A stretch of DNA of 59,487 nucleotides, filler included. It is 5 parts of 5 records of this genome, joined end to end, with 100 filler letters (N's around TTAATTAATTAA, not from the genome) between each part and the next. Parts side by side here need not be neighbours in the genome. Positions count along the whole stretch, not along the records: positions 36,833 to 59,487 come from DRR723986_9839; 4 more parts are not named here. The stretch is one strand, 5' to 3'. The notes under the pieces were generated by a model. That model saw only the letters and a program-made list of their open reading frames with translations. It did no database searches and had not been told where the DNA came from. Shown here in pieces: positions 1 through 52,974 of this stretch (positions are counted from its first letter, which is position 1; each line of letters starts with the position of its first letter). The position numbers and the translations under genes were made by a program.

Positions 1-730
1 GATCCAGTACTACAACGACAAGAACGCGGATCTGCAAGCCAAGGCCGAGGCCAACGGCTGGACCGGGAATGAGTTGACCAACTTCAACCGCGACATCCTT
101 GTGCTGGCCAACCCCGAAATCGCAAGCCTTCCGGGTTGGGTGATCGGTCTTGTGGCGGCGGGCGGCCTTGCGGCGGCTCTGTCTACTGCGGCGGGTTTGC
201 TTCTGGCGATCTCCTCTGCGGTGTCTCACGATTTGCTCAAAGGTCAGTTGACCCCGAACATGTCTGAGAAGTCGGAACTCTTGGCGGCGCGTATCTCGAT
301 GGCGGCGGCGATTGTGGTGGCGGTTCTGCTGGGCCTCAACCCGCCGGGATTTGCGGCGCAAACCGTGGCGCTTGCCTTTGGTCTTGCCGCAGCATCGATC
401 TTCCCTGCGCTGATGATGGGTATCTTCTCCACCCGCATCAACAACACCGGCGCCGTGGCTGGTATGCTGGCCGGTCTGGTGGTGACACTGCTCTACATCT
501 TCCTTCACAAGGGTTGGTTCTTTATCCCTGACACCAACTCTTTCACCGATGCAGATCCCCTGCTTGGTCCGATCAAATCCACCTCCTTTGGTGCGATCGG
601 CGCGGCGGTCAACTTTGCGGTGGCCTATGTGGTCTCCGGCATGACGAAGGAGACCCCGCAAGAGATCAAGGATCTGGTACAAAGCGTGCGTATCCCGCGC
701 GGTGCGGGGGGTGCGGTCGAAGACCACTAA
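1..730 (+). CDS. actP: Sodium:solute symporter, ActP-like cation/acetate symporter (5' partial)
   Basis: The frame is open back to position 2 (IQYYNDKN...). It has the SSS motif GGLAAALSTAAGLLLAISSAVSHD and many transmembrane segments, and lies next to the DUF294 and exonuclease genes typical of actP loci. Confidence 0.85.
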   Translation, partial: IQYYNDKNADLQAKAEANGWTGNELTNFNRDILVLANPEIASLPGWVIGLVAAGGLAAALSTAAGLLLAISSAVSHDLLKGQLTPNMSEKSELLAARISMAAAIVVAVLLGLNPPGFAAQTVALAFGLAAASIFPALMMGIFSTRINNTGAVAGMLAGLVVTLLYIFLHKGWFFIPDTNSFTDADPLLGPIKSTSFGAIGAAVNFAVAYVVSGMTKETPQEIKDLVQSVRIPRGAGGAVEDH

Positions 731-36144: not shown

Positions 36145-36240
36145 CTGTCATCTCCGTGTCGAAGCTGCCCTCTATATGGGCAACATCCCGCCCGGCGGCA
36201 AGGTTGACTTGCCCTCCTTTCCAAAGGCATTCAGACGCAC

Positions 36241-37484: not shown

Positions 37485-37566
37485 AAGCGAGTTTCGTGCA
37501 TACTTGGTCGCAAACCATTCCTTTCCTAAAGATTGGAGGTGTGCTCTAATAGCCAGAAGCTTGTGC

Positions 37567-38126
37567 AATGCTAAACTCTGAAATAGGGCGGCGGGGAAGA
37601 ACTCGACTTCCAGCCCAACCGCTTGTTGGACAAAAATCTAGTCCTCGGACTTTCAGAGGGAGGTTAAATTACAAAGGGAGAAAACATTCTGGTGACAGAC
37701 TGAATCGGTATAGGCAAAAGGTACCTTGCCTGCGCCTTGGGAAATCAGGCCTGCAGCAAAGGAAAAAAAATTTCTTTACACAAAGACCACCCTATTGCAC
37801 ACCCAGCCCAAATTTGCAAAAATGGACGGCTCGGTAATCAAGGAGATGATCAAGCTCAAAAAACAGGAAGTGTTCGCCCTTAATGACTTCGGCATCCAGC
37901 CACTGCATATCCAAAGCAGAATGCCGTTAATGGAAAGCATACAAGATTGTCACGGCAAAAAATCAACGATCATCACCTCTCAGCTTCCAGTCCAGGCTTT
38001 GTATGAAGTGATAGGTGACCAAAACTTAGCCAATGTGAGATGGGCCGGGTTGTTCATGACGCTCATCAGGTAGAATTACGTAAGTTATCCCTGAAAAAAA
38101 AGAAAAATAATCAACCCAGCACTTAA
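37567..38126 (+). pseudogene. istB: IS21-family helper ATPase IstB remnant
   Basis: Pieces across stops and frameshifts: EELDFQPNRLLDKN, ENILVT..GIGKRYLACALGNQAC, LNDFGIQP, STIITSQLPV and RVVHDAHQVEL. Confidence 0.85.
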
Positions 38127-38204: not shown

Positions 38205-38801
38205 CTAATTCAAGCGCTCCACAAGAAACTCCCCTTCCGTGATTGTCACCATGTCCTTTTGGACTATATCATAAATTTTTCCCTCAAAAGTGCCCTTGGC
38301 ATATTCTTCAGTAAGCTCCACTATTTTGACAACAGGTGATTCCTTTTCGACATCAGAAACATAGTTTTTTTGATGTCCCTCTGTGTAATAACCTATTGTT
38401 GCACCCTTCAGTCCAAAACCCGTTTCTTCAAATGGTTCCAAAAAATCATATCGCTTGGTGGTTATTGGGTCTGAATCCTTAATAAAAATGGTGAATCCAC
38501 CTCTGCTCCCGTTTGCTACTTCATCCAGTTCACCGCCTACTATAGATACCTGATGAACGCCTGCCATGATTCTGACCATAGAAAATTGCAGCAAATCAGG
38601 ATCATTGAACTTTATTAGTTCCCCGTCCACTTTTGCCTGGATGTAATAAGGATAGTCTTCACTGGAATCAATTTCCTCGTCCAAGGCTTCTACTTCTTCC
38701 TGTTCAGATTCATGGTTTTCACTTTTTGTCAAGGGCGAGCAACTAAACATAGTTCCTACAAGGAACCCTAGTAGGATTCTAATGAATAGTGTCTTTTTCA
38801 T
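38205..38801 (-). CDS. Hypothetical lipoprotein
   Basis: Lipoprotein signal ..TMFSC, an acidic linker and a beta-rich domain ending GTFEG..ITEGEF. Confidence 0.8.
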   Translation of the reverse strand: MKKTLFIRILLGFLVGTMFSCSPLTKSENHESEQEEVEALDEEIDSSEDYPYYIQAKVDGELIKFNDPDLLQFSMVRIMAGVHQVSIVGGELDEVANGSRGGFTIFIKDSDPITTKRYDFLEPFEETGFGLKGATIGYYTEGHQKNYVSDVEKESPVVKIVELTEEYAKGTFEGKIYDIVQKDMVTITEGEFLVERLN

Positions 38802-38822
38802 TTGATTGTTTGATTTTAGGAC

Positions 38823-39530
38823 TTAGAAAAACTTACCGATCCAGCGAAACTGACTAGGATCCTCTAGGTTTCGGATCGTGATTTTAGAAGGAAAAGAGGC
38901 TCTGATTTTCGGATCAGTTTCGTAAACCTCCTCGATGTCGTATTGCACCCAATTGAATCCTGGCTCTAGATTCAACTTGAATTGATAGTGAACAGGGATC
39001 TCTTCGCCCTCATAGGGCATGGTTGTGGTCAACGGGAAATCCAAAGAAGCAGGCTCTTCCAGAAAAACAATGTTGAGGTAAGAACCCGGAACGGCATTAT
39101 TGTTCCCGGGGTCTTCCATCCAGTTTTTCAGCTCTTCGCTTGTCACAGGAAAAATCGTTCCTGCCCATCGGTTTCTACTTGCCATTAGGGCGATATAGGG
39201 ATTTTTAAGAGCCATGATATCAGCGACCAAACCAAAATCATCTCTGGAAAACGGCCCGTCAAAGGCCTGATTCAAATCCCCGAAAAAGACCGCCATGTCA
39301 TTAACATCCATCGCTTCGGGCAAATCAGTTTGGGCCAAGTCGATAGAAAACTCTCCTCCGGCAGATACGGTGCCAATTTCCATGGGGTAATCAGCCCCGA
39401 GTGTAAAAAGTGCCAACTTCATTTCAGGGAGTTGACCAAAGCCATCAATTGTACCAGTGACCACTTCTTCCTGACTGTGAAGCGTCATAGCCATTAATCC
39501 AATCGTTAAAATTCCAAAAAGCTTTTTCAT
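38823..39530 (-). CDS. Hypothetical secreted protein
   Basis: Sec signal MKKLFGILTIGLMAMTLHS-Q; operonic spacing. Confidence 0.8.
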   Translation of the reverse strand: MKKLFGILTIGLMAMTLHSQEEVVTGTIDGFGQLPEMKLALFTLGADYPMEIGTVSAGGEFSIDLAQTDLPEAMDVNDMAVFFGDLNQAFDGPFSRDDFGLVADIMALKNPYIALMASRNRWAGTIFPVTSEELKNWMEDPGNNNAVPGSYLNIVFLEEPASLDFPLTTTMPYEGEEIPVHYQFKLNLEPGFNWVQYDIEEVYETDPKIRASFPSKITIRNLEDPSQFRWIGKFF

Positions 39531-39553
39531 GATTTTTAGTTTTATGTTAGTGT

Positions 39554-42500
39554 TTATTTACAGGGAAATTCATCCGTGGTCTTGTCCATCAGTCGAATCA
39601 AAATCGCCAGGCCTCCCATGATTTTTTGCGGCCTACCGGAAAGCCCACTATGAATAAAATGAGCCGCCTCACAGGCATCCATCTGCAAAGCTTTAAGTAC
39701 ATCTTCCTCCAGATTACTCGTGTCCATCGTTTTGATAGCATGGGAAGCAATCGCATACAATCGCAAAAGCATCAGATGAAAACCTAGAAACCCTATACTC
39801 CGCCCGGGATTCTTATTGAGGGTCCGGGTATAATTCTGGATTACAGTGTTCAGGTCATCGTATCGGGTGTAGATTTTGCGCTTCCCGCCCCCAGTCAGAT
39901 CAGGTAAAATCCCCAAAAGCTCTCCTGACTGCCGATCAATTTGCCAATAGGCCATTGTATGGAGTTCCTCGCTGAAGAGTTTAAAAGAAGAATCTCCTCG
40001 AAACCAATTTTCTCTGATAAATGAAATATTCGGTCCATCCCGTAAATGATCGTCAAACCAGTTCCTTTCCTTAGCCAATTCTGTACTGATCAGCCCAGAA
40101 TCGGAAAGTAAACTATAGGTGCTTTCTTCGAAAAAAGCATCTTCAATCAAAGCCAAATGAGCTGTTTTTCTGAGGTTTATCTGAAAACTTTCTTTGACAT
40201 CAGCAGAAATGGTGACAAAATCTGCTGTGGGTAAAATATCCACCGAATCTTCAGAAAATTCCTGATTGATACCCACAGTCCGTTTTAGAAGAACCATTCG
40301 AATACCACTTGCAAAAGTCAAAGAACCAGTAGTCACCTGATCAGGAAGTGGACTAAGCAAATGAATCATCAATGGATCATATATCCAATTGGATTTCTCC
40401 ATTGCTTGCAGAGTTTCTTCCAGATTTTCATTTTTAAGTGCTTCAATTCTAGCCTGATGGCTCAATCTAAAATTCAACAGTTCGTTTAGTGCATTTGCAT
40501 ATGTTGGTCCTTGCCCCTCTACTCCAATTAGCAAAGATCCAAAGAGAAAATTCCGAACATCGTCTGAATGGTTTTTACCGATTGAATCTGCCTTGTCAGT
40601 TACCGGATCCCAACCGGCCAAGACTTTCTCTATGTTTTGATTTCCGATTTTGATCCGCAGGTAAACACCGATAATCTTCGGCCCGATAGCTTGGGTTTTG
40701 TCCCGGAACTTGAACTCATAGGTTTCTTCAGCAAAGATCCGCTCCTCATCAAGACTTACCCTTAGCTGGTTTTTTTCCTGCTGTAGCGATCCATAAAAAG
40801 TAAACACATAAGGAGGTAAATCCATCTGGCCCAACTGCCGGATAATCTCCTCCTGCGTGATTTTCTGGTCTCTGGCATCGATGATTTTACCATCACTTGA
40901 CAAAGAGAGATTAGCGAAAACCTCTTGATTCCTGCCACGGGTCGAATGAGTTACGTCCAGAACAATCACTGGAGGTCCAGCCTGAAAAGTATCCAGATCC
41001 CCTTCTTTTAATTCATCCTGGTTATCTCCATCCGTCGCAAATAAAATCAGATCAAAAGAGCTTAGACTAGCTTTTCTCATCCACTGATAAAGAGCCGAAT
41101 CAGTAGCCCAGCTACTTAATGAAGCCTTTGGGTAATTTTGTCGGATACCATTTTCTAAAGTATTCAAAAACTCATTCATACCTTCGTTCCTGTATTGGAG
41201 AGGCATGCTAAATGAGGTATCGTATAGAATCAGCACTTTAGGAGCAAATTCGTTGGACTCCATAAGTGGATTGATTCCCTTACCATTTTCTGAAAATGTA
41301 AAATCTGAGGCATTTAATCCCTCTACAGGTTTACCCTTTTCGTCCATAGGCCACAAAGAGACCTTGACAAGCGAAGGAAGTCCTGCGGAAACCTTTAGTT
41401 GAAGACTGGCAACTTCTTTCGCCACGCTAGAATCCTTTCCTCCTTCGATCTGAAAACCATTGATACGAAGGGACTTTTCTTTTTGATTGACTTCTATCCG
41501 GTCAGCTTCCAACGTCACCGTCTGACATACTTCTGCCTTCCGGCTTTGTTCTTGCTCATTCAGGTCGGGGCTTTGAATACTGATTGCTGGGGTAAAAACC
41601 CTGACTTGATTAAAAGAAGTACTTGCCTGCTCCAGAAGGTCTAATCCATGATAAAAACCTAAGTGAAGCTGTCTTCCGACCAATTCTTGGGCTTGATAGG
41701 TTTTGGACAAAAGGATCGTTTCTTTTTCAGGAGTGATATTATCCCTGTAACTAAGGCTAAACTCAATGGGCGCTAACACATATTCTGGTGGATCGGCAAG
41801 TTTGATGGTACTTGCCAGGTCAAAAGCATTTCCAAAGGTGACAGAAGAATCGAAGAGATGAGCGATTTGCTCCTGTCCATTCCACTGAAACCGGACAGCG
41901 GGACACCTGCTATTGTCCCACCTGAAATCAAACTTGTGATACCGGATTCGCTCTTTTTCAGGAAGAAGGTCCCACAATCTTTCAGCTAGCCTTCCAGCAT
42001 CCTTTTCTTCGGAGTTGATATAGGTGAGCGTAGGCAAATCAGATTCTGAAACCTTGAGCATTTTCATCCAGCGATCCAAAAGCGTATCGTCCAGATCGGC
42101 TAAAATTTTTTCCTCATATGCTCTAAAAAACAAGGTCTTTACTTTTTCCTCATCAAAATCGGTGCGCTCATACACCACCTCAGCTGAAATACCGGCTTCA
42201 GCTAAAAGTTGGACAAGGAGCTCTGCTTTTTCCCTTGGAGTAGCAAATCCATCCCTTAATACGCCACGGGTACCCTGTCGCAAGGCAGTTCCCATACCTC
42301 TTAGGGAAGAAGCATTTGCCGGAATCAAATAGATTGAATCCCGTACAAATTCCAGCATCTTTTTAGGATCACAGCTTTCTTTTACTCGAAGGTAAGATTC
42401 GGTAAGACAAGTCTGGCTGCTTTGGATCAACTGCTGCATTTCTTTCCAAACCTGAAATACCCCACCATCAGGCTCTTCGTCAAAGCGCGGGTCTTCATCG

Positions 42501-42589
42501 CAGGAGCTAAGCCAAGCACCAGAAGAAGATACCAGGCCAAAGAGTGCCAGCTTTTTGAAAAATTCTCTTCGATCAGGTGAAAAGGACAT
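39554..42589 (-). CDS. Large Tat-signal lipoprotein with transglutaminase-like and vWA-like domains
   Basis: DRREFFKK Tat motif and LSSC lipobox; FVRDSIYLIP..GVLRDGFATPREKAELL; vWA motifs LYDTSFSM and FATDG. ATG at 42589. Confidence 0.75.
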   Translation of the reverse strand: MSFSPDRREFFKKLALFGLVSSSGAWLSSCDEDPRFDEEPDGGVFQVWKEMQQLIQSSQTCLTESYLRVKESCDPKKMLEFVRDSIYLIPANASSLRGMGTALRQGTRGVLRDGFATPREKAELLVQLLAEAGISAEVVYERTDFDEEKVKTLFFRAYEEKILADLDDTLLDRWMKMLKVSESDLPTLTYINSEEKDAGRLAERLWDLLPEKERIRYHKFDFRWDNSRCPAVRFQWNGQEQIAHLFDSSVTFGNAFDLASTIKLADPPEYVLAPIEFSLSYRDNITPEKETILLSKTYQAQELVGRQLHLGFYHGLDLLEQASTSFNQVRVFTPAISIQSPDLNEQEQSRKAEVCQTVTLEADRIEVNQKEKSLRINGFQIEGGKDSSVAKEVASLQLKVSAGLPSLVKVSLWPMDEKGKPVEGLNASDFTFSENGKGINPLMESNEFAPKVLILYDTSFSMPLQYRNEGMNEFLNTLENGIRQNYPKASLSSWATDSALYQWMRKASLSSFDLILFATDGDNQDELKEGDLDTFQAGPPVIVLDVTHSTRGRNQEVFANLSLSSDGKIIDARDQKITQEEIIRQLGQMDLPPYVFTFYGSLQQEKNQLRVSLDEERIFAEETYEFKFRDKTQAIGPKIIGVYLRIKIGNQNIEKVLAGWDPVTDKADSIGKNHSDDVRNFLFGSLLIGVEGQGPTYANALNELLNFRLSHQARIEALKNENLEETLQAMEKSNWIYDPLMIHLLSPLPDQVTTGSLTFASGIRMVLLKRTVGINQEFSEDSVDILPTADFVTISADVKESFQINLRKTAHLALIEDAFFEESTYSLLSDSGLISTELAKERNWFDDHLRDGPNISFIRENWFRGDSSFKLFSEELHTMAYWQIDRQSGELLGILPDLTGGGKRKIYTRYDDLNTVIQNYTRTLNKNPGRSIGFLGFHLMLLRLYAIASHAIKTMDTSNLEEDVLKALQMDACEAAHFIHSGLSGRPQKIMGGLAILIRLMDKTTDEFPCK

Positions 42590-42591
42590 AA

Positions 42592-42942
42592 TTAAAAGTT
42601 TTTGAACCATTCTTCAAACTGTGTCCCAAGGAAGGGCACAGGCTCCATGCGACCATTGACCGCATGAATCAGACCCATTACCCACATATAAACCATCACA
42701 GCTAACCCAATTAGGTAAATGATCCAGCCTAGAATTGGTATCAAACTGATCAATACCAGACCCAAACCGACCATGACCAAGCCCAGCGATTGTTTGATGT
42801 GGTATTTGGCAAAAGGATAATTCTTCTCATTGTTTATGACAAAAGCGATAATCAAGCCGATCACGGTGAGATAGGCTATGACGGCTTCGGTTTTACCCTC
42901 GGGAGAAGTAGTCAAGCTTAAAGGTTCTTTACCGTTTTCCAT
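42592..42942 (-). CDS. Small membrane protein (DUF4870-like)
   Basis: Three transmembrane helices with AYLT..G, FAKYHIKQSLGL and PVPFLG. Confidence 0.8.
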   Translation of the reverse strand: MENGKEPLSLTTSPEGKTEAVIAYLTVIGLIIAFVINNEKNYPFAKYHIKQSLGLVMVGLGLVLISLIPILGWIIYLIGLAVMVYMWVMGLIHAVNGRMEPVPFLGTQFEEWFKNF

Positions 42943-42953
42943 TTTAAATAGAG

Positions 42954-43562
42954 TTAGTTCATAGATAATCCTTCATCGCGTGGACGAAGTTGAAAATTAA
43001 AACCTTGTACTGTTATTTGCCTTGACCCATTAAAATTGGCCAGAATAATCCCGTTAAGCTCTCCTTTGAGCAGTTCACCTTCTGTCCAGATCTTGACAAG
43101 TTTGCTGGTATTTTCGAAGCGATAGTAGGAGACATAATCGATTCCCTGATCAGCATTGTAATAGCTCACGATAATATGATCATCAAACTGCTGCAGCTGA
43201 TTGATATGCGGAGTCGGATATTCATTGTCCAATGTCCACGGTTTCAGCTGAGAAGCTTTTAGTGTTATGCTGAAAACATCCCCTGCCCTCGGATCATCAT
43301 CTGGTGGATAAAAATTGAGGGTCATGGTCCGGTCAAATTCTGTAGCAGTGACCATCAAGTAGGTGTCAAAATCATCCAAAAGCGGCCCACTAGTACCCAA
43401 AGCGACGTATTTGCTTTCATCATAGACAATGGTACCAGAGACATCACCGCTCACTTCCAGTGAAAAATATTCACTATCCACCAGTTTGATGTCATCTTCT
43501 TTGCCGCATGCCAGGCAGAAAATCAAGATTGCTGATAAGGAAGTGCTTAAATACTTTTTCAT
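42954..43562 (-). CDS. Hypothetical lipoprotein
   Basis: Signal ending CLAC followed by a charged GKEDD segment. Confidence 0.8.
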   Translation of the reverse strand: MKKYLSTSLSAILIFCLACGKEDDIKLVDSEYFSLEVSGDVSGTIVYDESKYVALGTSGPLLDDFDTYLMVTATEFDRTMTLNFYPPDDDPRAGDVFSITLKASQLKPWTLDNEYPTPHINQLQQFDDHIIVSYYNADQGIDYVSYYRFENTSKLVKIWTEGELLKGELNGIILANFNGSRQITVQGFNFQLRPRDEGLSMN

Positions 43563-43564
43563 TT

Positions 43565-44374
43565 TTATCGGTTTGATTGGGTTAGCTCATAGGGTTCAAA
43601 AGCCACACATACCATCGTCGCACTTCCGTTCTTTTTGCCGGTGTTTTCTTTATCTTCCATTTCCATATACATCATCAAACTGTTTGGAAATTCCTCAGTA
43701 AAGCGCTTTAGCTCATCCGGCATATTGTTTTGTGTATTTTTAAATACATTATCAAAATTGGCCGGCATGTCAGTGGCAAAATAGACGATGAATTTCATCT
43801 CGTCATTTTCCATCTGCCTACCTATACAGTCATAGCCTAGAAATTCCCGATTGGGCAGTTCAGTCAGTGTGAAGGATTCATAATCCACCGCATAATCTTC
43901 CTCCATCAGTTCCTCTTCCCCGAGAATATTCATGGAAGTGGCAATCGGCCTACCCTCAATGTAATTGACCATAATCTGTCGCTCCTCGTCAATGACCGAG
44001 AAGAAATTCATGCCCATATCCATTTGGTAGCCGATGTAGGATTCGTTGGGATTTAGAAAATAATCCAGCTGCATTTCTCCGGCTGAGGTGCTCATTTTCA
44101 TAGCATAGCGGTATTGAAAAGAGTAGGCATCTGGTAGATCCGATACATCCACGGGTTTGCCTTTGGCTCCGCCACCGAACATTCCCTCAAAGTTGGGATT
44201 GAGGATTTTGTTTAAGGCATTTTCGGTCATCTGCCCGGCTTTATCCGCAGTTTTGTATTCGACCACTTCTTTGGCTCGTTCCTCTACTCTTTTTTTGAGG
44301 TCTTTCAGGAATTGTCCTTGGGACAACTGCGTGCATAAAATGTATAGGCAAAGCGATAAAATAGATTTTTTCAT
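43565..44374 (-). CDS. Secreted DUF4412-like protein
   Basis: Signal peptide, N-terminal helix QFLKDLKKRVEE and the REFLGYDC motif. ATG at 44374. Confidence 0.75.
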   Translation of the reverse strand: MKKSILSLCLYILCTQLSQGQFLKDLKKRVEERAKEVVEYKTADKAGQMTENALNKILNPNFEGMFGGGAKGKPVDVSDLPDAYSFQYRYAMKMSTSAGEMQLDYFLNPNESYIGYQMDMGMNFFSVIDEERQIMVNYIEGRPIATSMNILGEEELMEEDYAVDYESFTLTELPNREFLGYDCIGRQMENDEMKFIVYFATDMPANFDNVFKNTQNNMPDELKRFTEEFPNSLMMYMEMEDKENTGKKNGSATMVCVAFEPYELTQSNR

Positions 44375-44397
44375 TACAATCGTTGTTTTGAATGGGA

Positions 44398-44463
44398 TAA
44401 AGTTCAAAAGAGAAGTATCAAAGGCATATCACAGAAGTAACAAGTGATAACAACTTTGTAACA
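44398..44463 (-). promoter_or_regulatory. Regulated promoter: -7 box plus TGTTAC-N15-TGTTAC direct repeat
   Basis: Minus-strand GAACTTTA at 44398-44405 (Bacteroidota consensus TAnnTTTG); plus-strand GTAACA at 44437 and 44458. Confidence 0.6.
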
Positions 44464-44507
44464 GGAGCTAAAAAATACCCTTGCTCACTCTCAAGAATGG
44501 TTTATTA

Positions 44508-46448
44508 TCAATCCACTAGTTCGAATCTCACCCAAACGGCAGCCTTTTCTCCTGCCTTTCCTGCCTTGATCGGACCTTCCAGAATATACCTTCCACCCGT
44601 AGAAGAAGCCTCAGTTAACATCAGGGTTCTTGGGCCAAAATCATGAAACTGCATGCCTCCCTGTGCGATCTGTCCGTCCGGATAAGTTTTCGTTGCTTCA
44701 AGGGGCTTGTTTCCTGCCAGTATGTCCAGTAATTCCTGAAGTGGAACCAAAATATCATCATCATGGATCACCCGGTCATTTGAACTGGTGTATTCTTTGA
44801 GCCAGGTATAAATCCGCAGTTCGTTTTTGGGATCCTTGTAGTCCTCCCAGGAAAGATTAAACGTCATGGAATTGACGATTTGATTTAGATCGCGGGCGAC
44901 TCGGTTTTCCCGAACATGTATTTGAGTATTCATCCCTCCTCCTATCCAACAGGCATAGGGGCCCGAGATGTTTTTTCTCCCCGGAGAAGTGAAGCCACAG
45001 GGAGCACCAGAGAACTTATTAAACTGGGATTCACTTGGCAGCAGGGCTTTGTTTCTAGCCTTTAGCACCACACCCATTTGGAGACCATAATCATCAGGAT
45101 CATCTCCACCTCCATCCCGGCCGTCCACATTCTGAATGTCTGTCAGGGTCATTTTGAGACGGTAATTTCGTTTTTCAACACAGGTTTCTATATCCTGCCG
45201 GATGGAGTTGGTCATACCAATCTGCTGATTTTGCAGATTCTTGATTTCAAAGCCTATTGGAAGAGCCAGTTTGTGATTTGCTGGCTGACTTGTGATCCAT
45301 CTTCCGATTTCAGGCCGACCATTTTCCAGTGTATTGACTATTGACTCGGCTGCGGCCTGGCTGGATCCTCCATACATATAGGCATGTATCTCCACCTCGT
45401 TGTTACTTTTGGCCTGTTGATAGAACGAACTCAGTTGCGCCTGTGAAATCGCCGAAAAGCCTGTACTGATGTTCAGTTTAGCCATCAGGCTTTGCAGAGA
45501 GCTTTTGGACTTAAATAAGATTCCACCTCGCCTGCCATAATTTACCTTGGAGATGTAGATATAGTCCTCAGTGGAAACTGGCTGGGAAGTTTGAAAAACG
45601 GTAGTTTCATCCAGTCCATCTACGTCCAAGGAAAACATAAACTGGGTGAATTCGACTAGGTAATAGTGGTAACTTTTTTGATTCCCGGCCTCTACTCCTA
45701 TAGAGCTCGAAAAAGAGCCCAAACCACCCGAATACCGTCCATTCAGCTTAAAACTCAGATCTTCCTGACTTTTGATTTCGGTAAACTTAAGTGTCATATT
45801 GGCTGAAAGCGGATCTGCATTTTGTGAAATGAGCTGATTCTCGGCTGTAGCAATGTTTGATTTGTTTTTGGGATTAGTGACGGTAATAGCGGAATTAATG
45901 GCTCCACGCAAATCAGAGGTAGAAATGGTAATGGGAGAACGCTCATAGCGTTGCTCAATCTCATATGTCCCATTTAGGAAACTCCGGACATTCAGGACTA
46001 TGCCCGGCTTGAGCCAATCAGGTCTAGCGCCCAGAGGCATTTCTTCAAATTGCCTAATCTTGGATTCCAAATTAAGACGCTCCCGCTTGCAGAAAAGTGT
46101 AGCTGTATTTTTGTCACTCAGGGGCTGGGACTGAGTAACTTTGGAGTCATTCAGTGCATCTGATACGACCAGTAATTCCCTTCGACCACCCAGTTCGGTA
46201 GGACTACCTGAGATCAGATATTCAAAAGGTTCTATCTGAGCAAAATAATTGACCACTCCTACCAGTTGAGGAACTTCTTGCGTCGAGGTTTTTTCAAGGT
46301 CTGTTTTTGTCTGAGTGGGTTTAGTGGTAGTGGTTTTCCTTGTGATGACTTGGGCCTCAGCCCAAGAGACAGTCATGAAAGCACAAAACCCCAAGGTAAG
46401 CCAGGTAGAGCTTTTTAGAAAGCTGGATTTTTTTGAAAAAAGTAGCAT
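44508..46448 (-). CDS. Thiol-activated cytolysin family / CDC-like (CDCL) pore-forming protein
   Basis: Ordered CDC core motifs LKPGIVL, RSPITIS, VTNPKNKSN, FTQFMFSLDVD, YISKVNYGR, YGGSS and LPIGF. It has a Sec signal, and the C-terminal domain lacks the ECTGLAWEWWR undecapeptide. Confidence 0.85.
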   Translation of the reverse strand: MLLFSKKSSFLKSSTWLTLGFCAFMTVSWAEAQVITRKTTTTKPTQTKTDLEKTSTQEVPQLVGVVNYFAQIEPFEYLISGSPTELGGRRELLVVSDALNDSKVTQSQPLSDKNTATLFCKRERLNLESKIRQFEEMPLGARPDWLKPGIVLNVRSFLNGTYEIEQRYERSPITISTSDLRGAINSAITVTNPKNKSNIATAENQLISQNADPLSANMTLKFTEIKSQEDLSFKLNGRYSGGLGSFSSSIGVEAGNQKSYHYYLVEFTQFMFSLDVDGLDETTVFQTSQPVSTEDYIYISKVNYGRRGGILFKSKSSLQSLMAKLNISTGFSAISQAQLSSFYQQAKSNNEVEIHAYMYGGSSQAAAESIVNTLENGRPEIGRWITSQPANHKLALPIGFEIKNLQNQQIGMTNSIRQDIETCVEKRNYRLKMTLTDIQNVDGRDGGGDDPDDYGLQMGVVLKARNKALLPSESQFNKFSGAPCGFTSPGRKNISGPYACWIGGGMNTQIHVRENRVARDLNQIVNSMTFNLSWEDYKDPKNELRIYTWLKEYTSSNDRVIHDDDILVPLQELLDILAGNKPLEATKTYPDGQIAQGGMQFHDFGPRTLMLTEASSTGGRYILEGPIKAGKAGEKAAVWVRFELVD

Positions 46449-46471
46449 GTCTTATGTCGTTTTATGATGCT

Positions 46472-46537
46472 CAAAACTCTTTAAAACATGCTTGATTGGA
46501 TAAAACTTACCTACCAGAACATATCATTATTGTAACC
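46472..46537 (-). promoter_or_regulatory. Promoter of the CDCL gene with a degenerate copy of the 21-bp direct repeat
   Basis: Minus-strand GAGTTTTG at 46472-46479; plus-strand CTACCA at 46511 and GTAACC at 46532. Offsets from the ATG (63 and 84 nt) equal those at 44374. Confidence 0.5.
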
Positions 46538-46683
46538 CCCAGCCTTATGGGAGCTAGTTTGTTTGCCAAGTTCTTTATTTTTCCAAGGGATGTTAATTTT
46601 CCACAAGGATACTCAAAGAGAAAAACTCTAAAATGAGACTTTTTATCTTAATTCTCAGTTGAAAAACTTATGATTTCCGAAAT

Positions 46684-46713
46684 AAAAAAAGGGTGAAAGT
46701 ATTCTTTCCACCC
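46684..46713 (-). terminator. Rho-independent terminator of the lipoprotein operon
   Basis: Minus strand GGGTGGAAAG-AATA-CTTTCACCC followed by T7. Confidence 0.75.
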
Positions 46714-46735
46714 CAAAACATCAGCAATTCCCAGC

Positions 46736-47236
46736 TTATTCGATCCGAAAACTAAACTCCGCCGGAGCTATCTTCCCCTTAATACCGCCAACTGGAATCA
46801 TTTCCAGCTTCACACTGTAAGTTCCTTTGGGGAGATTCGTATCCAATTTTGGAAAATCCAATCGGGGAACAGGCATTTCGTAGACTTCATTCTGCAATGC
46901 GGGAATCATGTCAAAAGCTTCGATGGGCACATACATATCGCCAGGCAGCCAAGGCCAATTTTCACGACTGCTTTGGTGAATGGTCTTGCCGTCCCGCATT
47001 ACTGTAGTTTTCATGTGGAAGAGAACCAAGCCTCTTTTTCCGATATCAGAAGCTTTGTAGGAAAACTTAATTTTATACTTATTTTCTTTGAAGCTTTTGA
47101 ACAAATCCACCGGGATGGATTCTTCTAGGTTTTTCCCATTGGGAAAACCCTCGATTTGAACTCTACCATCTAGGACTTGGCTCAAAGACGGTAAAGAAAC
47201 TAAAAGGAAAAGGGTCATTAAGAAATAATTTTTCAT
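46736..47236 (-). CDS. Hypothetical secreted beta-sandwich-like protein
   Basis: Sec signal ending SLS-Q; LPKGTYSVKL Ig-like strand. Confidence 0.78.
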   Translation of the reverse strand: MKNYFLMTLFLLVSLPSLSQVLDGRVQIEGFPNGKNLEESIPVDLFKSFKENKYKIKFSYKASDIGKRGLVLFHMKTTVMRDGKTIHQSSRENWPWLPGDMYVPIEAFDMIPALQNEVYEMPVPRLDFPKLDTNLPKGTYSVKLEMIPVGGIKGKIAPAEFSFRIE

Positions 47237-47247
47237 TGATTTGGTAT

Positions 47248-47868
47248 TTAGTTAGAAATAAAGTTTGCTGATAGGCTAAAGCTCCAGAGTTGATCAAGCG
47301 TCAACCCAAAGCCTTTGAGTGTATAGTGAAAGCGGTTTTGATCAATGAATTCGATCTCAGTAAAGTTTTGCTCAGCTATCTCAGTTTCTCTTGCTCGCAT
47401 CTCTTTTCTTGAATAAATCCTTGTTTTTGATCCACTTCTAAATTCTTCAATGTCCAATTCAAGACGTTCTGATGCAGCTCTTAAGAGTAAAGCACCGTTT
47501 TTCCCAGCTCCATCCAGAATCTCCAATTGAATTGACTGATTTGGAAGTGTCTGATGTTGATAGCTTGCTTGGATAGCGACGATTCCGGCTTCTGCCCTAT
47601 GGCCACTAAGTAGCTGTGTTCTCTGAAAATCGTCCACAATTTCAGGAACCCAGGTCTTCAATATTTCCCGGGAAACTGGAATTTCCTTTGCCAAGTCGAG
47701 GTCTTGCTGGACTGGGGACAAGTTTTGTGAGTCTCTCCGATGATTGGATTCATTAATCAATTTTGACGATGGCTCTATTTTCTCCAGCAGTTTATCTGAG
47801 CGTTGGCATCCATAAATGATGATCAGCAAAGCCACCAAGCCTAGAAATCCATGGTTAAACCGGTTCAT
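47248..47868 (-). CDS. Hypothetical lipoprotein, paralog 3 of a tandem family
   Basis: Lipobox IYGC; family motif LEILDGAG..NRFHY. Confidence 0.8.
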   Translation of the reverse strand: MNRFNHGFLGLVALLIIIYGCQRSDKLLEKIEPSSKLINESNHRRDSQNLSPVQQDLDLAKEIPVSREILKTWVPEIVDDFQRTQLLSGHRAEAGIVAIQASYQHQTLPNQSIQLEILDGAGKNGALLLRAASERLELDIEEFRSGSKTRIYSRKEMRARETEIAEQNFTEIEFIDQNRFHYTLKGFGLTLDQLWSFSLSANFISN

Positions 47869-48461
47869 GGAGCAAGTTTTTTAGGATCCAAGAGTTGGAA
47901 AAATCCCCACAACAGATCCGGGTTTACGTTTTCGCCCTTGTAGTTGAAATAAAAACGATCATCTATGGCATATTCAAGAAAGGTCTTTCCATCTTCAGGA
48001 GTGTGTCTTTCAAAAGCTGTGACTCCATAATTTTGATATACCTTAACATAGCCATCGAGCAAAGGCTCTTCGTATTTTTTTGCCAGCTTCGCATTGATCA
48101 TCCCACGAACAGCTACTACAAGCGGTCCTTTGCCATCCAGTACGTCCAAAACAAAAAAGCTTTCAGGATTCGAATCGCTGGTGTATGTGACCTGTACCCT
48201 TGGAAGATCACCATAGTCCATAGTTACTCCTCCGGACCTGCTATAGCCAGCGTGCTGCATAGGCAACCAATCCAGCCATTGTGCAGTTGCTATTGGACTG
48301 CTTTTTCCCAATTTAGGATCAGTTTCACCGGCACTGAGAGCGGCAGATTTGACCAGCTCGGTGGAGCTATTTGCCTGGGTGTTTTTTTCTCCGCATCCAG
48401 TCCAGAAAATAGCTGCGATAGCTAGAACAGAGAGGTATTTCAAAGAAGAATAATAGATCAT
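47865..48461 (-). CDS. Hypothetical lipoprotein, paralog 2 of a tandem family
   Basis: Lipobox WTGC; LDVLDGKG..DRFYF. Confidence 0.8.
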   Translation of the reverse strand: MIYYSSLKYLSVLAIAAIFWTGCGEKNTQANSSTELVKSAALSAGETDPKLGKSSPIATAQWLDWLPMQHAGYSRSGGVTMDYGDLPRVQVTYTSDSNPESFFVLDVLDGKGPLVVAVRGMINAKLAKKYEEPLLDGYVKVYQNYGVTAFERHTPEDGKTFLEYAIDDRFYFNYKGENVNPDLLWGFFQLLDPKKLAP

Positions 48462-48473
48462 GAGAGGCTTTGT

Positions 48474-49079
48474 TTAGCTGGGGAAAGGTTGAGATTGAAG
48501 TTCTTCGAAAGCACCGTAGATTTGGTCGAGACCGACCTGATTACCGATAATCCCTAAGTGATAGCGTTGATTTTGAAGGTATTCGAGCTGATGGTTTTGC
48601 TGTCCGTTTTTGGTTTTGCTCACTACCAAAACCCGATCTCCTTTATGATCTTTGACTTCTGATTTAAAGTCATCTCCTGATTCATTTCGCTTTTTTTCCA
48701 AGAGTTTGTACACCGCATTGGCATGCTGAAAGTGCGGGTTGCCGGCTCCATCGATCACTTCAAGCCGGATACCGGGCTGATCGCTACCGTCTTTGGCAGC
48801 ATAGAATGCCATAAAGCCATTTAAGCTGGGATGAGGCTCTTTAGATAGCAGCGGAAATCCCTGAAGTTGATCCGGTGGTAATGCCAGATAGGCAGCTTCT
48901 GATAACGGACCTTTGTCCATTAGAGCCATCAGCCAAGAGCCGGTAGAGGATTCGGGTGTTTTTTCCAGACTAGAGACTCCAGCTACAGTCTCGGACTGTT
49001 CGGAAGGAGCCGAAGTGCAGGCAATTAAACTACAAGCAGATAGCCCAATGAATAAATACTTAAAATGAGAAATTATCAT
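48474..49079 (-). CDS. Hypothetical lipoprotein, paralog 1 of a tandem family
   Basis: Lipobox LIAC; LEVIDGAG..QRYHL. Confidence 0.8.
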   Translation of the reverse strand: MIISHFKYLFIGLSACSLIACTSAPSEQSETVAGVSSLEKTPESSTGSWLMALMDKGPLSEAAYLALPPDQLQGFPLLSKEPHPSLNGFMAFYAAKDGSDQPGIRLEVIDGAGNPHFQHANAVYKLLEKKRNESGDDFKSEVKDHKGDRVLVVSKTKNGQQNHQLEYLQNQRYHLGIIGNQVGLDQIYGAFEELQSQPFPS

Positions 49080-49106
49080 GGCAGGATTCGAATTTGAATA
49101 CTGCTT

Positions 49107-49172
49107 GAAAGGTAATCTGGACCAAAAAATTCAGATATAAAAACTGTAACAAATTATCTTAAAATGGTAACA
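49107..49172 (-). promoter_or_regulatory. Regulated promoter: -7 box plus TGTTAC-N15-TGTTAC direct repeat
   Basis: Minus-strand TACCTTTC at 49107-49114; plus-strand GTAACA at 49146 and 49167. Confidence 0.6.
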
Positions 49173-49223
49173 GGGCAATATTATGAGGAAGTAATGAACC
49201 TTCTGCTTTCCCGGTCAAGGCCT

Positions 49224-50750
49224 TTATAGCGCTGCTTTTGCTTTCACAAATCGGAAAATCACCTCCGTTCCACCTTCCTCATCAAGATGATCGATTATTT
49301 CAAAATGATAATCACCTGATTCATTTTTGCTAAAAAGCTCCAGTCTGTTTTTGACCAGGTTTAGTCCGATTGATTCCTTTTGGATCGTTCGATTGGCATT
49401 GAATTGTTTACTTTTTGCTCGCCCGATGCCATTATCCCGAATGGAAAGCAGAATGGCCTCCCTTTTTTTCCTTAGAAGAACCCTGATCTTTTTCTGTCCT
49501 TCTTTATGCATCAAGCCATGCCAGATGGCGTTTTCAAAAAATGGCTGAAGAATCAAGGGTGGAAGCGAGAGTTCATTGAGACGAAGATCCTCCGGTAAAT
49601 CTAGACTAAAATCAATACCCTCCTCAAATCGAATGGATTCCAGATCCAAGTAAAGCTTGGCAATTTCCAGTTCTTCTCCCAGTGATATTTTAGGTTTGCG
49701 AGAGCTCTCCAGCACCATCCGTATAAGCTTAGAAAAGCGGTTCAGATAAAATACAGCGCGGTCTTTGTCGCCGTTGATCAGGAAAACTTTGACCGAATTG
49801 AGCGAATTAAAAATAAAATGTGGGTTCATTTGGCTCTGAAGGGATTGCAAATGAAGTTTATTGATTTCTTGCTCGTAGGTGGACTTGATTCGCTGCAGTC
49901 TTTCGGAGGCTACATTGGCAGTTAATGAATGGATATTCTCTTGTTTTTGAGCGAGTTTAGTCGCCAATTCCCGATTTAGTGCTTCCCGTAAACTATCATT
50001 TTCCCGAAGCTTTTCCACCAATTCACCTTGCGCCTTTAGTTTATCCAAAAAAACCTCCCGCTGTTTGATCGCGAGAGCATAAGTGAAAAAGAAGTTTTCA
50101 ATCAAAATCCCCAAATAGAAAATAAAGAAATACCGGTCAGTGTAAGCTAGATCTTTTCCGATGGTCATAAAACCTACCAAAAAGGAAGATATTCCCACTA
50201 TCAAAAAACCGTAGAGTATGGGTTTTTTGACCTTTTCTTCTGTCTTGATAATCAGGTAAACTCCGCAAATCATGAAGACAAGCGTGATGGGCATGAATAC
50301 GAAAAAATAAAATTGCCTCATCAGAACGTATCCATCCCAAATGAATACTCCTATGAACAGAATAAAGAAAGCTACAGAGACACCTACCGTGTAGCGAATG
50401 TAATAGCGGATAAACTTAGGATGATAGTTCCTGAGCCTTAGGATTTCTATCAAAAAATAGGAAAAAACAATGAAGCTTGTAAACTGCAATGGGGTAATAC
50501 TTATCCTAAAAAACTCCGGGAAAGTAAAATAGATTTCTTTCAGATAACTATAATACGGTCGTCCGATCAGCGCAAGGGCGTTGACAAAAGCATAAATACT
50601 GTAATAGAAAAAGTACTTTTCCCTGTTTTTGATATAAAGGATGAGATGAAAAAGTCCCAGGTAAAACAAAATAGAGATGGCCATGACTGCCAACCCATTT
50701 CTATTGCTGTTGTGTAAAAAATCAATTAGATACTGAAAATAGAGATCCAT
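49224..50750 (-). CDS. LytS/YehU-type sensor histidine kinase with 7TM-DISM-like membrane domain
   Basis: About 7 transmembrane helices, H-box SQMNPHFIFN, QPFFENAIWHG and DNGIG. Confidence 0.9.
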   Translation of the reverse strand: MDLYFQYLIDFLHNSNRNGLAVMAISILFYLGLFHLILYIKNREKYFFYYSIYAFVNALALIGRPYYSYLKEIYFTFPEFFRISITPLQFTSFIVFSYFLIEILRLRNYHPKFIRYYIRYTVGVSVAFFILFIGVFIWDGYVLMRQFYFFVFMPITLVFMICGVYLIIKTEEKVKKPILYGFLIVGISSFLVGFMTIGKDLAYTDRYFFIFYLGILIENFFFTYALAIKQREVFLDKLKAQGELVEKLRENDSLREALNRELATKLAQKQENIHSLTANVASERLQRIKSTYEQEINKLHLQSLQSQMNPHFIFNSLNSVKVFLINGDKDRAVFYLNRFSKLIRMVLESSRKPKISLGEELEIAKLYLDLESIRFEEGIDFSLDLPEDLRLNELSLPPLILQPFFENAIWHGLMHKEGQKKIRVLLRKKREAILLSIRDNGIGRAKSKQFNANRTIQKESIGLNLVKNRLELFSKNESGDYHFEIIDHLDEEGGTEVIFRFVKAKAAL

Positions 50751-50762
50751 CCATTCCCCGAT

Positions 50763-52259
50763 TTACAGCCAAAATACGATTTCTGTGCCTTCTTCGCCTG
50801 CTTGGATATGATCCACAATCTCAAAATGGTAATTGACAGACTCGGATTGGTTGAACAACTGCAGCCTGTCCTTAGACAAACTCATCCCGATTGACTCCTT
50901 TTTTAGGGTTCTATTAGCATTGATTTCTTGGGATTTTTTCCGGCCAATTCCATTATCACGGATTGACATTTTTAAGCCTGCTTCTACCTTTTCTATGTTG
51001 ACTTTTATCCATTTTTCACCGCCTTTATTCATCAGTCCATGCCAGATGGCATTTTCAAAAAACGGCTGCAGGAGGAGCGGAGGAAAATAGATATCACTCA
51101 ACCTGACCTCCTCGCAAACATCCAGTTGGAAATCAATTCCATCCTCGAAACGGATCGACTCCAGAGTCAAGTAAAGTTTGGCGATTTCCAATTCTTCGCC
51201 CAGTGAAATCCTCGTTTTGCGCGAGCTCTCCAGCACCATGCGGATTAATTTGGAAAACCGATTCAGGTACAAAATAGCCCGATCCTTATCCTTATCTATC
51301 AAAAAGACTTTGATGGAATTCAGGGCATTGAAGATGAAATGGGGATTCATCTGACTTCTTAACGAGTGGAGATGAAGACGGGTAATCTCTCGTTCAAAAT
51401 CCGCTTTTACCCGCTCCATTCGCTCATCTTCTGCATCAGCAGCCAGAGAGAGCAATTGCTCCTCTTTGAGATTCAACTCACTCTGAAGGCTTTGATTGAG
51501 CTGCTCACGTAGTTCTTCATTTTCTTTGAGTTTTGCCAGGAGCTCCTCCTGGACTTCAATCTTTTCTTCGAAAATATCCCGCTGCTTGACTGCCAGTGCA
51601 AAAGTAAAAAGCAGGTTTTCTAGCAGGACACCAATGTAATACACATAATAATTTTGATCGATGACCTCCACTGGCTGGCCTATTGTCAGAATCGCTACCA
51701 GAAAGGCACTTATCCCCAAAAACAAAGATCCTATCAGGATGTAATACCTGATAGGATCTTTGGTCTTTGTCACCAAATAGCTGCCATAGATCATCACAAA
51801 AAAATAGATCGGAAGAAATACATAGTAAAAAAACTCCTGCATCGCGCTAAAGGAAGGAAACAACCATTCAAGCACAGCTAAAATCACATACAAGATCGTT
51901 CCGGAAAGTGTGAAATAATTAAAAAACCGGACAAACTTCGGCAATTGGACTTTCAAGTGAACCACCTCTATCACGAAGTAAGAAAAGAGGATGTAGCTAG
52001 CGAATTTCAGAGGGGAATCCAGTTGGATGAAAAAATCAGGAAAGGCCCGAAAGATGTCCTGAAAAAAAACATTGTAGGGTACAGGGATCAGGATCAGGAC
52101 ATTTGTAAATGCATAGGTGCTGTAGAAAAGATAGAATTTCTCCCGGGTCTTTAAAAACAGGACAAAGTGATAAACAAACAGGTAAAACAGGATGGAGATA
52201 ATACTGAAGCCCAGCCCATTGTAATTACTATCATATAAAAAATCCAAAAACCAATCCAT
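50763..52259 (-). CDS. LytS/YehU-type sensor histidine kinase with 7TM-DISM-like membrane domain (paralog)
   Basis: About 7 transmembrane helices, SQMNPHFIFN, QPFFENAIWHG and DNGIG. Confidence 0.9.
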   Translation of the reverse strand: MDWFLDFLYDSNYNGLGFSIISILFYLFVYHFVLFLKTREKFYLFYSTYAFTNVLILIPVPYNVFFQDIFRAFPDFFIQLDSPLKFASYILFSYFVIEVVHLKVQLPKFVRFFNYFTLSGTILYVILAVLEWLFPSFSAMQEFFYYVFLPIYFFVMIYGSYLVTKTKDPIRYYILIGSLFLGISAFLVAILTIGQPVEVIDQNYYVYYIGVLLENLLFTFALAVKQRDIFEEKIEVQEELLAKLKENEELREQLNQSLQSELNLKEEQLLSLAADAEDERMERVKADFEREITRLHLHSLRSQMNPHFIFNALNSIKVFLIDKDKDRAILYLNRFSKLIRMVLESSRKTRISLGEELEIAKLYLTLESIRFEDGIDFQLDVCEEVRLSDIYFPPLLLQPFFENAIWHGLMNKGGEKWIKVNIEKVEAGLKMSIRDNGIGRKKSQEINANRTLKKESIGMSLSKDRLQLFNQSESVNYHFEIVDHIQAGEEGTEIVFWL

Positions 52260-52263
52260 ATTT

Positions 52264-52974
52264 TTAAGATTTAAGTTGATTTTTGAGTACTTCCAGAAAC
52301 TCCTTTTTTCTCAAGCGGGAAAGCGGAAGGCCCTCACCGGATTTCATCAGCACCTGCGACTGGCTTTTATCCAAAAGCTCAAAATGTTCCATATTAATCA
52401 GGTAACTATGATGAATTCTGAAAAAAGGAAATTGCTGTAACTGTGACTGTAAGTGTTTGAGGTTCTTGGAAACCATTAGTTTAGATCCACAAATGAGGTG
52501 AACACAGGTATAGCTGCCCTCGCTTTCGCAGTAGGTAATTTCCTTGGTTCGGATCATCCGCAATTCCTGGTCGGTATTCAAAAGAATCTTTTCGTGAGGT
52601 GTCGTCTGAGTCTGCGTTTTTTTATCCTCCAATTTGGTCAATACACGATCCAAATCCTCTCCGTCCACCGGCTTGAGTAAGTAATCAAACGCATGCTCTC
52701 GTATCGCCTGAATAGCATACTCGGAATAAGCCGTGACAAACACCACCTCGAAATTTCTGGGATTGATTTTTTCCAAAAACCGAAAACCATCCATCTGCGG
52801 CATCTCAATATCTAAAAATAAACAGTCAATAGACATCTGATTTAAGCCGGAAAGTGCATCAGCAACTGTTGAAAATGTATTGATGATTTCTATCCGATTT
52901 TCAAAAAGTGACAACTCATACTCCAATGAGAGGATTGACTTGGGTTCATCATCCAAAATAGCTACTCTTATCAT
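52264..52974 (-). CDS. LytTR-family response regulator
   Basis: Receiver motifs LDDE, FLDIEMP, FVTAY and LLKP; LytTR motif FFRIHHSYLIN. Confidence 0.95.
   Translation of the reverse strand: MIRVAILDDEPKSILSLEYELSLFENRIEIINTFSTVADALSGLNQMSIDCLFLDIEMPQMDGFRFLEKINPRNFEVVFVTAYSEYAIQAIREHAFDYLLKPVDGEDLDRVLTKLEDKKTQTQTTPHEKILLNTDQELRMIRTKEITYCESEGSYTCVHLICGSKLMVSKNLKHLQSQLQQFPFFRIHHSYLINMEHFELLDKSQSQVLMKSGEGLPLSRLRKKEFLEVLKNQLKS

Follow-up and report, generated by a model that had tools for sequence, protein, structure and literature searches.

A cholesterol-dependent cytolysin-like protein with a C2-like C-terminal domain, encoded within a conserved cluster of envelope genes

We analyzed a window of 59,487 nucleotides, that is, the whole stretch of DNA under study, in which five contigs are joined end to end. 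Its fifth contig carries a gene for a protein of 646 amino acids (aa) which, by motif and by predicted fold, is a member of the superfamily of cholesterol-dependent cytolysins (CDCs) and CDC-like proteins (CDCLs). We consider it reasonably probable, from the structural model and the sequence, that this protein is exported by Sec and signal peptidase I (SPI), forms a β-barrel pore and most likely does so without a CDCL small subunit. The solo status of the gene is not new. What is new is the C2-like tail of the protein and the cluster of co-directional envelope genes around its gene. In the literature searched, no description was found of a C2-like CDCL domain, of this cluster or of an Algoriphagus cytolysin; supplementary lists (PMC7527733 Fig. 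S4 and PMC11169675 Dataset 1) may name members of the clade.

Judged by its conservation, the CDCL gene is real, because 34 homologues were found at E≤1e-3 and because the closest locus, in Algoriphagus oliviformis H41, encodes an orthologue with 94% identity. Alignment identity in the 33 listed rows was 31-93%. The contig that carries the gene (36833-59487, GC content ~0.42) is collinear with A. oliviformis H41 at a nucleotide identity of 92-96%. Relatives in public records are annotated as 'thiol-activated cytolysin family protein'; the family is thus annotated already, yet uncharacterized. Two strings quoted in the original prediction, which had been made from the letters alone, are YISKVNYGR and GRDGGGDDPDDYG, and both were found in the translation of the gene.

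A full-length copy, one each, is present in 5 of 121 sampled genomes of the genus of A. oliviformis. One genome of this genus also has a distant CDC-like open reading frame (ORF) of 561 aa (G121:C23:887234-887956). It matches the family profile at positions 176-409 only (E 1.7e-14), so by sequence it is a different CDCL type. Outside Bacteroidota, family members were seen in Marinicella (Gammaproteobacteria) and Hyphomonas (Alphaproteobacteria) records (loci L017 and L022), in both cases without the gene cluster.

Passages of PMC7527733 define CDCLs by the motif F/Y-F/Y-Xn-YGR plus a GG pair. The protein has YY at residues 262-263, YGR at 304-306 and GG at 360-361. The 34-sequence family alignment shows no variation at Y304, R306, Y359, G360 and G361, and conservation of 90% or more at Y262, Y263 and G305. 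The CDC core motifs that the original prediction had reported, YGR included, are therefore both present and conserved. C120 and C423 each occur in 33 of the 34 sequences and may form a disulfide that spans domain 2.

To compare the predicted structure with solved ones, we searched the whole model with Foldseek. Intermedilysin (ILY), pneumolysin (PLY) and perfringolysin O (PFO) matched with E 2.8e-18 to ~1e-15 and probability 1.00. The Elizabethkingia anophelis CDCLs followed, with E 8.5e-12 for the long subunit EaCDCL-L and 5.4e-11 for the short subunit EaCDCL-S, and perforin (3nsj) matched with E 6.9e-6. In VIA, pneumolysin, ILY and PFO scored Z 19-21, with matches over model residues ~64-427 and 303-407 residues aligned; EaCDCL-S and EaCDCL-L scored Z 16.5-19. 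Single chains scored 21.2 (5aof), 19.4 (1pfo) and 17.4 (6nal). The predicted model thus has the fold of CDC domains 1-3 (D1-D3), with its bent core sheet between two helix bundles, and the absence of a MACPF/CDC fold, which had been named earlier as the result that would overturn the assignment, was not what we saw.

Sequence searches against the PDB agreed. The single sequence found EaCDCL-L (8g33/6xd4) with phmmer at E 5e-9. The 34-member family profile found vaginolysin (VLY), PLY and ILY at E 1e-19 to 2e-15 over profile positions 104-411, EaCDCL-S at 6e-12, EaCDCL-L at 1.8e-11 and 6nal at 2.2e-6, and so ranks classic CDCs above the EaCDCLs. Every match of the profile to a PDB chain stops at or before position 411, short of domain 4 (D4).

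In the model, a strand (218-225) is followed by helices (228-249), strands (261-314), helices (318-347) and a last strand (352-359) that runs into the GG pair. Segments 226-260 and 315-351, which are Ser/Gly-rich, are modelled as helix bundles and are placed where CDCs have their transmembrane hairpins. Their β-periodic hydrophobic moments are 2.1 and 1.85, compared with 1.61 at the 90th percentile of the protein, as is expected of segments that refold into transmembrane hairpins.

The C-terminal domain was folded alone from a 58-row alignment, with a predicted local distance difference test score (pLDDT) of 94.2 and a predicted TM score of 0.91. On Foldseek, C2 domains of CAR4, OsGAP1 and cPLA2 were on top (E 1.6e-5 to 9.5e-4), and those of PLC-delta, Jagged and NEDD4 were also listed. 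In an independent VIA scan of 48,161 chains, almost every one of the 50 highest rows was a C2 domain (Z 7.4 to 5.2), the perforin C2 domain 4y1s (Z 5.7) among them. A second look with VIA gave Z 8.2 to 6.1, the best with 143 aligned residues at a root mean square deviation of 4.9. Across the three fold searches alike, the first 50 rows consist almost entirely of C2 domains. According to the model, this domain is a sandwich of the eight-stranded C2 type, whose homology to C2 domains is not proven.

CDC D4 and EaCDCL-L D4 were absent from the top 50 rows of the domain-only fold searches, below which a weaker likeness may lie, and none of the solved D4s, that of EaCDCL-L included, matched the domain by sequence in the PDB searches. 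Nor was there a C2 chain among the matches of the family profile to the PDB. In whole-model alignments, ~100 extra residues superpose on CDC D4 (with 5aof, 401 residues aligned over 63..645 vs ~304 for D1-D3 alone). The strings ECTG, WEWW and W.WWR, which we take to represent the undecapeptide, do not occur in the CDCL protein, in agreement with the earlier claim that the long C-terminal domain has no undecapeptide. A single match of residues 438-606 to the SURF1-like chain 7w5z_H (E 0.0018) was not repeated with the family profile and was taken as chance.

The fold check that the original prediction had proposed for residues ~435-646 thus gave a confident model with C2 domains on top and no sequence match to a known CDCL D4. 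Its claim of a new receptor-binding domain stands in part. The domain is unlike CDC D4 and can now be described as a C2-like β-sandwich with conserved acidic loops. However, a divergent D4 is already a described property of CDCLs, as passages of PMC7527733 state.

D445 and D453, in the loop after the first strand of the C2-like domain (DGRDGGGDDPDDYG), are invariant in the family alignment. E535, D536 and D539 in loop 533-541 are conserved, as are D558 and D591. The placement of these acidic residues is compatible with the calcium-binding loops of C2 domains. Rather than binding lipid through Ca2+, the sandwich might bind a receptor of protein or glycan nature on a particular target cell, with the acidic loop as a receptor site or a structural metal site. 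We regard this as possible but not likely. Protein-binding C2 sandwiches (Munc13, Jagged/Delta and PKC-delta) are indeed among the fold matches, the insertions 476-498 and 577-610 are poorly conserved, as specificity loops would be, and CDCL D4 domains are thought, in the part of PMC7527733 that deals with them, to have diverged to bind species-specific targets. On the other hand, D445, D453, D539 and D591 hardly vary, if at all, between orders and even phyla, which suits a generic Ca2+/phospholipid ligand better, and the C2 domains that match best in structure (CAR4 and cPLA2) bind Ca2+ and lipid.

The C2-like domain is rare; 41 of 1.84 billion cluster representatives match it at E≤1e-3. It is found on longer CDC-type proteins of 785-1024 aa, of which three of the four tested contain PF01289. 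In P0041, P0043, P0048 and P0060 it follows N-terminal regions of unrelated kinds, to which Thr/Ser-rich linkers connect it, and in P0059 and P0071 it stands nearly alone after a signal and a linker. The N-terminal regions of P0041 and P0043 had no Pfam or PDB match. Because it occurs on other N-termini and alone, the C2-like module appears to be an independent unit.

The N-terminus of the protein has the pattern of a Sec/SPI-type signal peptide. In Bacteroidetes such signals follow a 'Q-rule', as described in part of PMC5837995. [AGS]Q closes the hydrophobic stretch in 34 of 34 family members and Q33 is invariant, whereas a lipobox-like motif was found by regular expression within the first 45 residues of none of the 34. 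The cleavage site was placed from the sequence and the Q-rule, not by a predictor. These counts agree with the cleavable, non-lipoprotein signal claimed earlier.

A disordered linker follows, with pLDDT below 50 over residues 23-71. The Thr/Lys-rich N-terminal extension of the original prediction was borne out, as residues 33-75 contain 10 Thr and 4 Lys. The linker also contains TR36, TK42 and TK47; TK and TR dipeptides are the activation sites mapped in the CDCLs of E. anophelis and Bacteroides fragilis (Ea/BfCDCLs).

No second CDC-fold gene was found in the window, where 1 of 384 six-frame segments matches the family profile at E≤1, as had been claimed from the letters. Among 22 related loci with flanks of up to 10 kb, each has exactly one CDCL (22/22). 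The whole genomes of five relatives contain one match to the family profile each (5/5). With PF01289 at E≤10, only the orthologue was found in four of these genomes, and nothing in the fifth. The search for a small CDCL that had been suggested thus found none in the related loci or in the relatives' genomes, with the relatives standing in for the genome of the source strain. As far as these searches of sequence can tell, the protein most likely needs no small CDCL subunit.

The earlier proposal of a one-component or differently partnered pore former is supported in that no small CDCL was found, and the conserved neighbour cluster lends some support to its latter half. A single-gene CDCL is by itself unsurprising. 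It is the commonest arrangement in Bacteroidota, seen in 821 of 1578 CDCL-positive genomes in the survey section of PMC11169675, and the functional work described there kept adjacent pairs with signal peptidase II (SpII) signals only, by design.

Compared with the classic CDCs (pneumolysin, perfringolysin O, intermedilysin and vaginolysin), the present protein has the same fold of D1-D3, the same YY...YGR and GG motifs, the same helix bundles flanking the core sheet, a single gene and a C-terminal β-sandwich in the D4 position. It differs in that its D4 is C2-like, has 220 aa and shows neither the undecapeptide strings nor a D4 sequence match. Its producers are Gram-negative Bacteroidota, it carries a Q-rule SPI signal, and it has an extra disordered Thr/Lys-rich N-terminus. 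Because it has neither the undecapeptide nor a CDC D4, it is not a classic CDC. We would not expect it to depend on cholesterol. The Gram-negative CDC 6nal ('Gram Negative Toxin') is also a single-gene CDC-fold protein of a Gram-negative producer. However, Gram-negative CDCs have retained the cognate D4 of CDCs and act lytically on membranes that contain cholesterol, according to passages of PMC7527733, whereas the present family is without that D4.

The CDCL-L/S proteins of E. anophelis and B. fragilis (PDB 6xd4, 8g33, 8g32 and 9ccp) share the phylum, the superfamily, a non-CDC D4, TK/TR dipeptides in the N-terminal region and nearby genes for small lipoproteins, which may be compared with the immunity lipoprotein BcdI. 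In contrast, the present family has no CDCL-S gene, its signal is of SPI and not SpII type, its D4 is unmatched in sequence to that of EaCDCL-L, and its gene neighbourhood is distinct and much larger. An SpII lipoprotein signal (a criterion from part of PMC11169675) and an adjacent CDCL-S gene on the same strand mark the two-component systems. Since the present gene has neither, it was not assigned to them.

Perforin likewise has a pore-forming core of the MACPF/CDC superfamily followed by a C2-type sandwich, which mediates Ca2+-dependent membrane binding according to the title of PDB entry 4y1s. Here the core is CDC-type and not MACPF-type, there is no EGF domain, and the C2 likeness is at fold level. 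The C2-like tail was most probably acquired independently of perforin's.

From these comparisons we propose how the protein could act. After export by Sec/SPI, it would leave the cell by some further route. The conserved acidic loops of the C2-like domain (D445 and D453; E535, D536 and D539) would dock the protein on a target membrane, probably in a Ca2+-dependent manner, on the pattern of C2 domains such as that of perforin. Monomers would assemble into a homo-oligomeric ring in the manner of classic CDCs, and the two helix bundles would refold to insert the barrel. The disordered Thr/Lys-rich linker is possibly a pro-region trimmed by a protease. The neighbouring envelope genes would probably serve self-protection, handling or release, with the small lipoproteins as candidates for the first of these roles on the model of the 30-kDa lipoprotein BcdI, and the LytS/LytTR genes would probably serve regulation. 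Candidate targets are other bacteria, eukaryotic grazers or algae.

A bolder and rather doubtful extension is that the protein represents a bacterial counterpart of perforin. It would be a single-component CDC-fold pore former with a Ca2+-dependent, lipid-binding C2-like tail, the effector of an undescribed, horizontally mobile envelope module of ~10 genes (Tat-exported lipoprotein with a von Willebrand factor A (VWA) motif, DUF4412-like and DUF4870-like proteins, small lipoproteins and LytS/LytTR control). Such a module would belong to marine Bacteroidota and reach some Proteobacteria, its other parts would give immunity, activation or release, and the C2-like module would be reused as a targeting unit on non-CDC N-termini.

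The characterized CDCLs so far are two-component, lipoprotein-type systems of gut and insect bacteria, although single genes are commonest in Bacteroidota. The present family offers a tractable one-gene case in culturable marine bacteria (Algoriphagus, Mariniflexile, Cellulophaga and Gelidibacter). It comes with a testable hypothesis of membrane targeting (a C2-like domain, conserved acidic loops and a Ca2+-rich habitat) and with defined candidate accessory genes. Should Ca2+-dependent lipid binding by the tail be borne out, the design of perforin would have a parallel in bacteria, and the tail would be a rare functional C2-type module there. It would also bear on whether solo CDCLs self-assemble in the fashion of CDCs or need another initiator.

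Several points weigh against a one-component pore former with a lipid-binding tail. Pore formation is predicted from fold and motifs, and self-oligomerization from the likeness to CDCs. PF01289 (Thiol_cytolysin, 25-bit cut-off) gave no match to the CDCL protein itself at E≤1. The search with this model that had been proposed earlier was thus negative for the protein and positive for its family, as 25 of the 34 members match (best E 1.3e-14) and a six-frame search gave 42.3 bits for the orthologue in A. oliviformis, with its 94% identity. The Z values of 6-8 to C2 domains fall in VIA's 'middling' range and show a likeness at fold level only; we therefore claim a C2-type fold and not homology. 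C2 Pfam models, indeed any Pfam model, at E≤10 matched none of 10 domain sequences. The most distant members of the family have other residues in place of the GGGDDPDD run, and only D445 and D453 persist in them. An SPI signal takes the protein only into the periplasm, and a further step would be needed for it to leave the cell. NCBIfam contains models of the C-terminal domain of the type IX secretion system (T9SS), and no NCBIfam family matched the CDCL protein at E≤1; hence no C-terminal T9SS sorting domain was found. The C-terminus is instead the final strand of the C2-like fold in the domain model. Beyond the linked contig, the absence of a partner was read from the genomes of relatives and not from that of the source. 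Finally, EaCDCL-L alone gave less than 10% of maximal marker release, with inefficient pores, in the experiments reported in part of PMC11169675.

The last two points also favour another explanation, in which the protein is the membrane-binding 'long' part of a MAC-like two-component CDCL whose polymerizing partner lies elsewhere or is too diverged. The only characterized CDCLs of Bacteroidota are L+S pairs, the single-sequence PDB match of the protein is EaCDCL-L, and the TR/TK dipeptides of its linker are the same as the mapped activation sites. Nevertheless, we consider this explanation improbable. No second match to the profile or to PF01289 was found in the five genomes, that of the 94%-identical orthologue included, nor a second CDCL in the 22 loci, and PF01289 is the model by which the survey in PMC11169675, in the part that describes it, found both L and S subunits. 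The signal of the family is SPI, not the SpII of the studied pairs. Moreover, save for the 1018-aa protein, the conserved neighbours are shorter than 285 aa, too little to accommodate CDC domains 1-3, and none of them scores against the family profile in the 22 loci (best E 0.35).

The favoured reading, a solo exported pore former, gains a genetic context from the neighbouring genes (Table 1). A cluster around the CDCL gene, shared among marine Bacteroidota and overlooked in the original prediction, spans 38205-52974. The co-directional neighbours are kept, in shuffled order, in 15 of the 22 loci (L001-L015), in records of Cytophagales, Flavobacteriales, Bacteroidales and Sphingobacteriales. 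The set is absent from the seven most distant loci, the Marinicella and Hyphomonas records among them. The module is accessory and probably mobile, as judged from the full-length copies of the gene in only 5 of 121 genomes of the genus.

Table 1. Positions of the CDCL gene, the parts of its product and the neighbouring features in the window.
Feature	Position	Strand	Basis or remarks
CDCL gene	44508..46448	(-)	646 aa + stop, ATG start; end coordinate takes in the stop
Sec/SPI-type signal peptide, residues 1-32, ending WAEA/Q	46353..46448	(-)	Motif counts and invariant Q33
Thr/Lys/Pro-rich disordered N-terminal linker, residues 33-71, with TR36, TK42 and TK47	46236..46352	(-)	pLDDT, composition
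CDC domains 1-3, predicted pore-forming core, residues 72-426	45171..46235	(-)	Fold and profile matches
YGR304-306 of the F/Y-F/Y-Xn-YGR motif	45531..45539	(-)	Alignment and motif search; YY at 262-263
Invariant glycine pair G360-G361, right after core strand 352-359	45366..45371	(-)	Alignment, model
C2-like β-sandwich with two long insertions, residues 427-646, 220 aa	44511..45170	(-)	Domain model and fold searches
Acidic loop D442-G455, between strands 1 and 2 of the C2-like domain	45084..45125	(-)	Alignment, model
198-aa lipoprotein, no family	38205..38801	(-)	7/22 loci
235-aa exported protein, no family	38823..39530	(-)	11/22 loci
1018-aa Tat-signal lipoprotein, VWA-type DxSxS motif	39554..42610	(-)	Homologue in 13/22 loci
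116-aa DUF4870-like small membrane protein	42592..42942	(-)	Pfam E 9.6e-4, under family cut-off; 11/22 loci
202-aa lipoprotein (…CLAC/GKEDD)	42954..43562	(-)	Homologue in 4/22 loci
DUF4412-like exported protein	43565..44407	(-)	269 aa when counted from the MKK codon (44374), the start in orthologues
Terminator-like hairpin and T-run, in the gap that separates the CDCL gene from the 166-aa gene upstream	46690..46714	(-)	Consensus match only
166-aa exported protein, gene next upstream of the CDCL gene	46736..47236	(-)	10/22 loci
Three paralogous ~200-aa lipoproteins	47248..47868, 47865..48461, 48474..49079	(-)	One homology group, 11/22 loci
Two tandem 7TMR-DISM/LytS-type histidine kinases and LytTR response regulator	49224..52974	(-)	Kinase 8/22 loci, regulator 10/22

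The six genes downstream of the CDCL gene are tightly packed. Next to it lies the gene for the DUF4412-like protein, whose nearest Atlas clusters carry PF14371 DUF4412 (score 0.97). Its homologues are present in 14 of the 22 loci, one of them a weak match of 65 residues, and adjoin the CDCL gene in 8 of the 22. Against the PDB this protein gave PBP5 rows only (E ~0.03), which were taken as chance. The 1018-aa protein has an RR pair at 14-15 for twin-arginine translocation (Tat), a lipobox cysteine at C37 and a D464/S466/S468 motif, all invariant in 13 sequences, and the Atlas names it 'VWFA domain-containing' (score 0.98). No Pfam family was found for it; its residues 63-144 have a weak PDB-profile likeness to the 'putative protease' 3kd4 (E 0.0029, the sole row). 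Across 10 neighbours, Pfam and NCBIfam gave no family above the cut-off. PADLOC gave 0 matches for 10 cluster proteins, so no link to known anti-phage systems was seen.

It is improbable that the protein acts instead on the producer's own envelope under LytS/LytTR control (regulated lysis, vesicle release or export of cluster products). In favour of this, all conserved neighbours are envelope proteins with SPI, SpII or Tat-SpII signals or membrane helices, in 8-10 of the 22 loci the cluster comes with regulators of LytS/LytTR type, and the NCBIfam search found no recognized route across the outer membrane. Against it, the characterized CDCs and CDCLs treated in the relevant passages of PMC11169675 and PMC7527733 all act on foreign membranes, the patchy distribution in the genus is typical of accessory antagonism genes, and no sequence tie to holin-like or lysis systems was found, with PADLOC silent on the cluster proteins.

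The two kinase genes (49224-52259) are tandem paralogues with a DNA identity of ~68-69% over 570 bases. Within the coding region of the second kinase, a perfect inverted repeat with a 16-bp stem and an 8-base loop was seen at 51723-51762. At the left edge of the cluster, 37323-38073 consists of short ORFs and untranslatable stretches that look like insertion-sequence remnants. Near the right end of the contig, 58290-59087 contains an ORF of 265 aa for an ISL3-family transposase, whose match ends at 160 of 240 Pfam positions.

Spacers of the form N44-TTAATTAATTAA-N44 at 13761-13860, 20619-20718, 30883-30982 and 36733-36832 join the five contigs, and only 36833-59487 is physically linked to the CDCL gene. 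Contigs 1-4 have a GC content of 0.52-0.62 vs ~0.42 for contig 5. Positions 26000-36800 had no match in the A. oliviformis genome, though contig 5 is 92-96% identical to it. From the difference in GC content and this unmatched stretch, the joined record may mix organisms. The contig that precedes the last spacer, also of high GC content, carries a prolipoprotein diacylglyceryl transferase gene (36241-36732) that is cut by the contig end.

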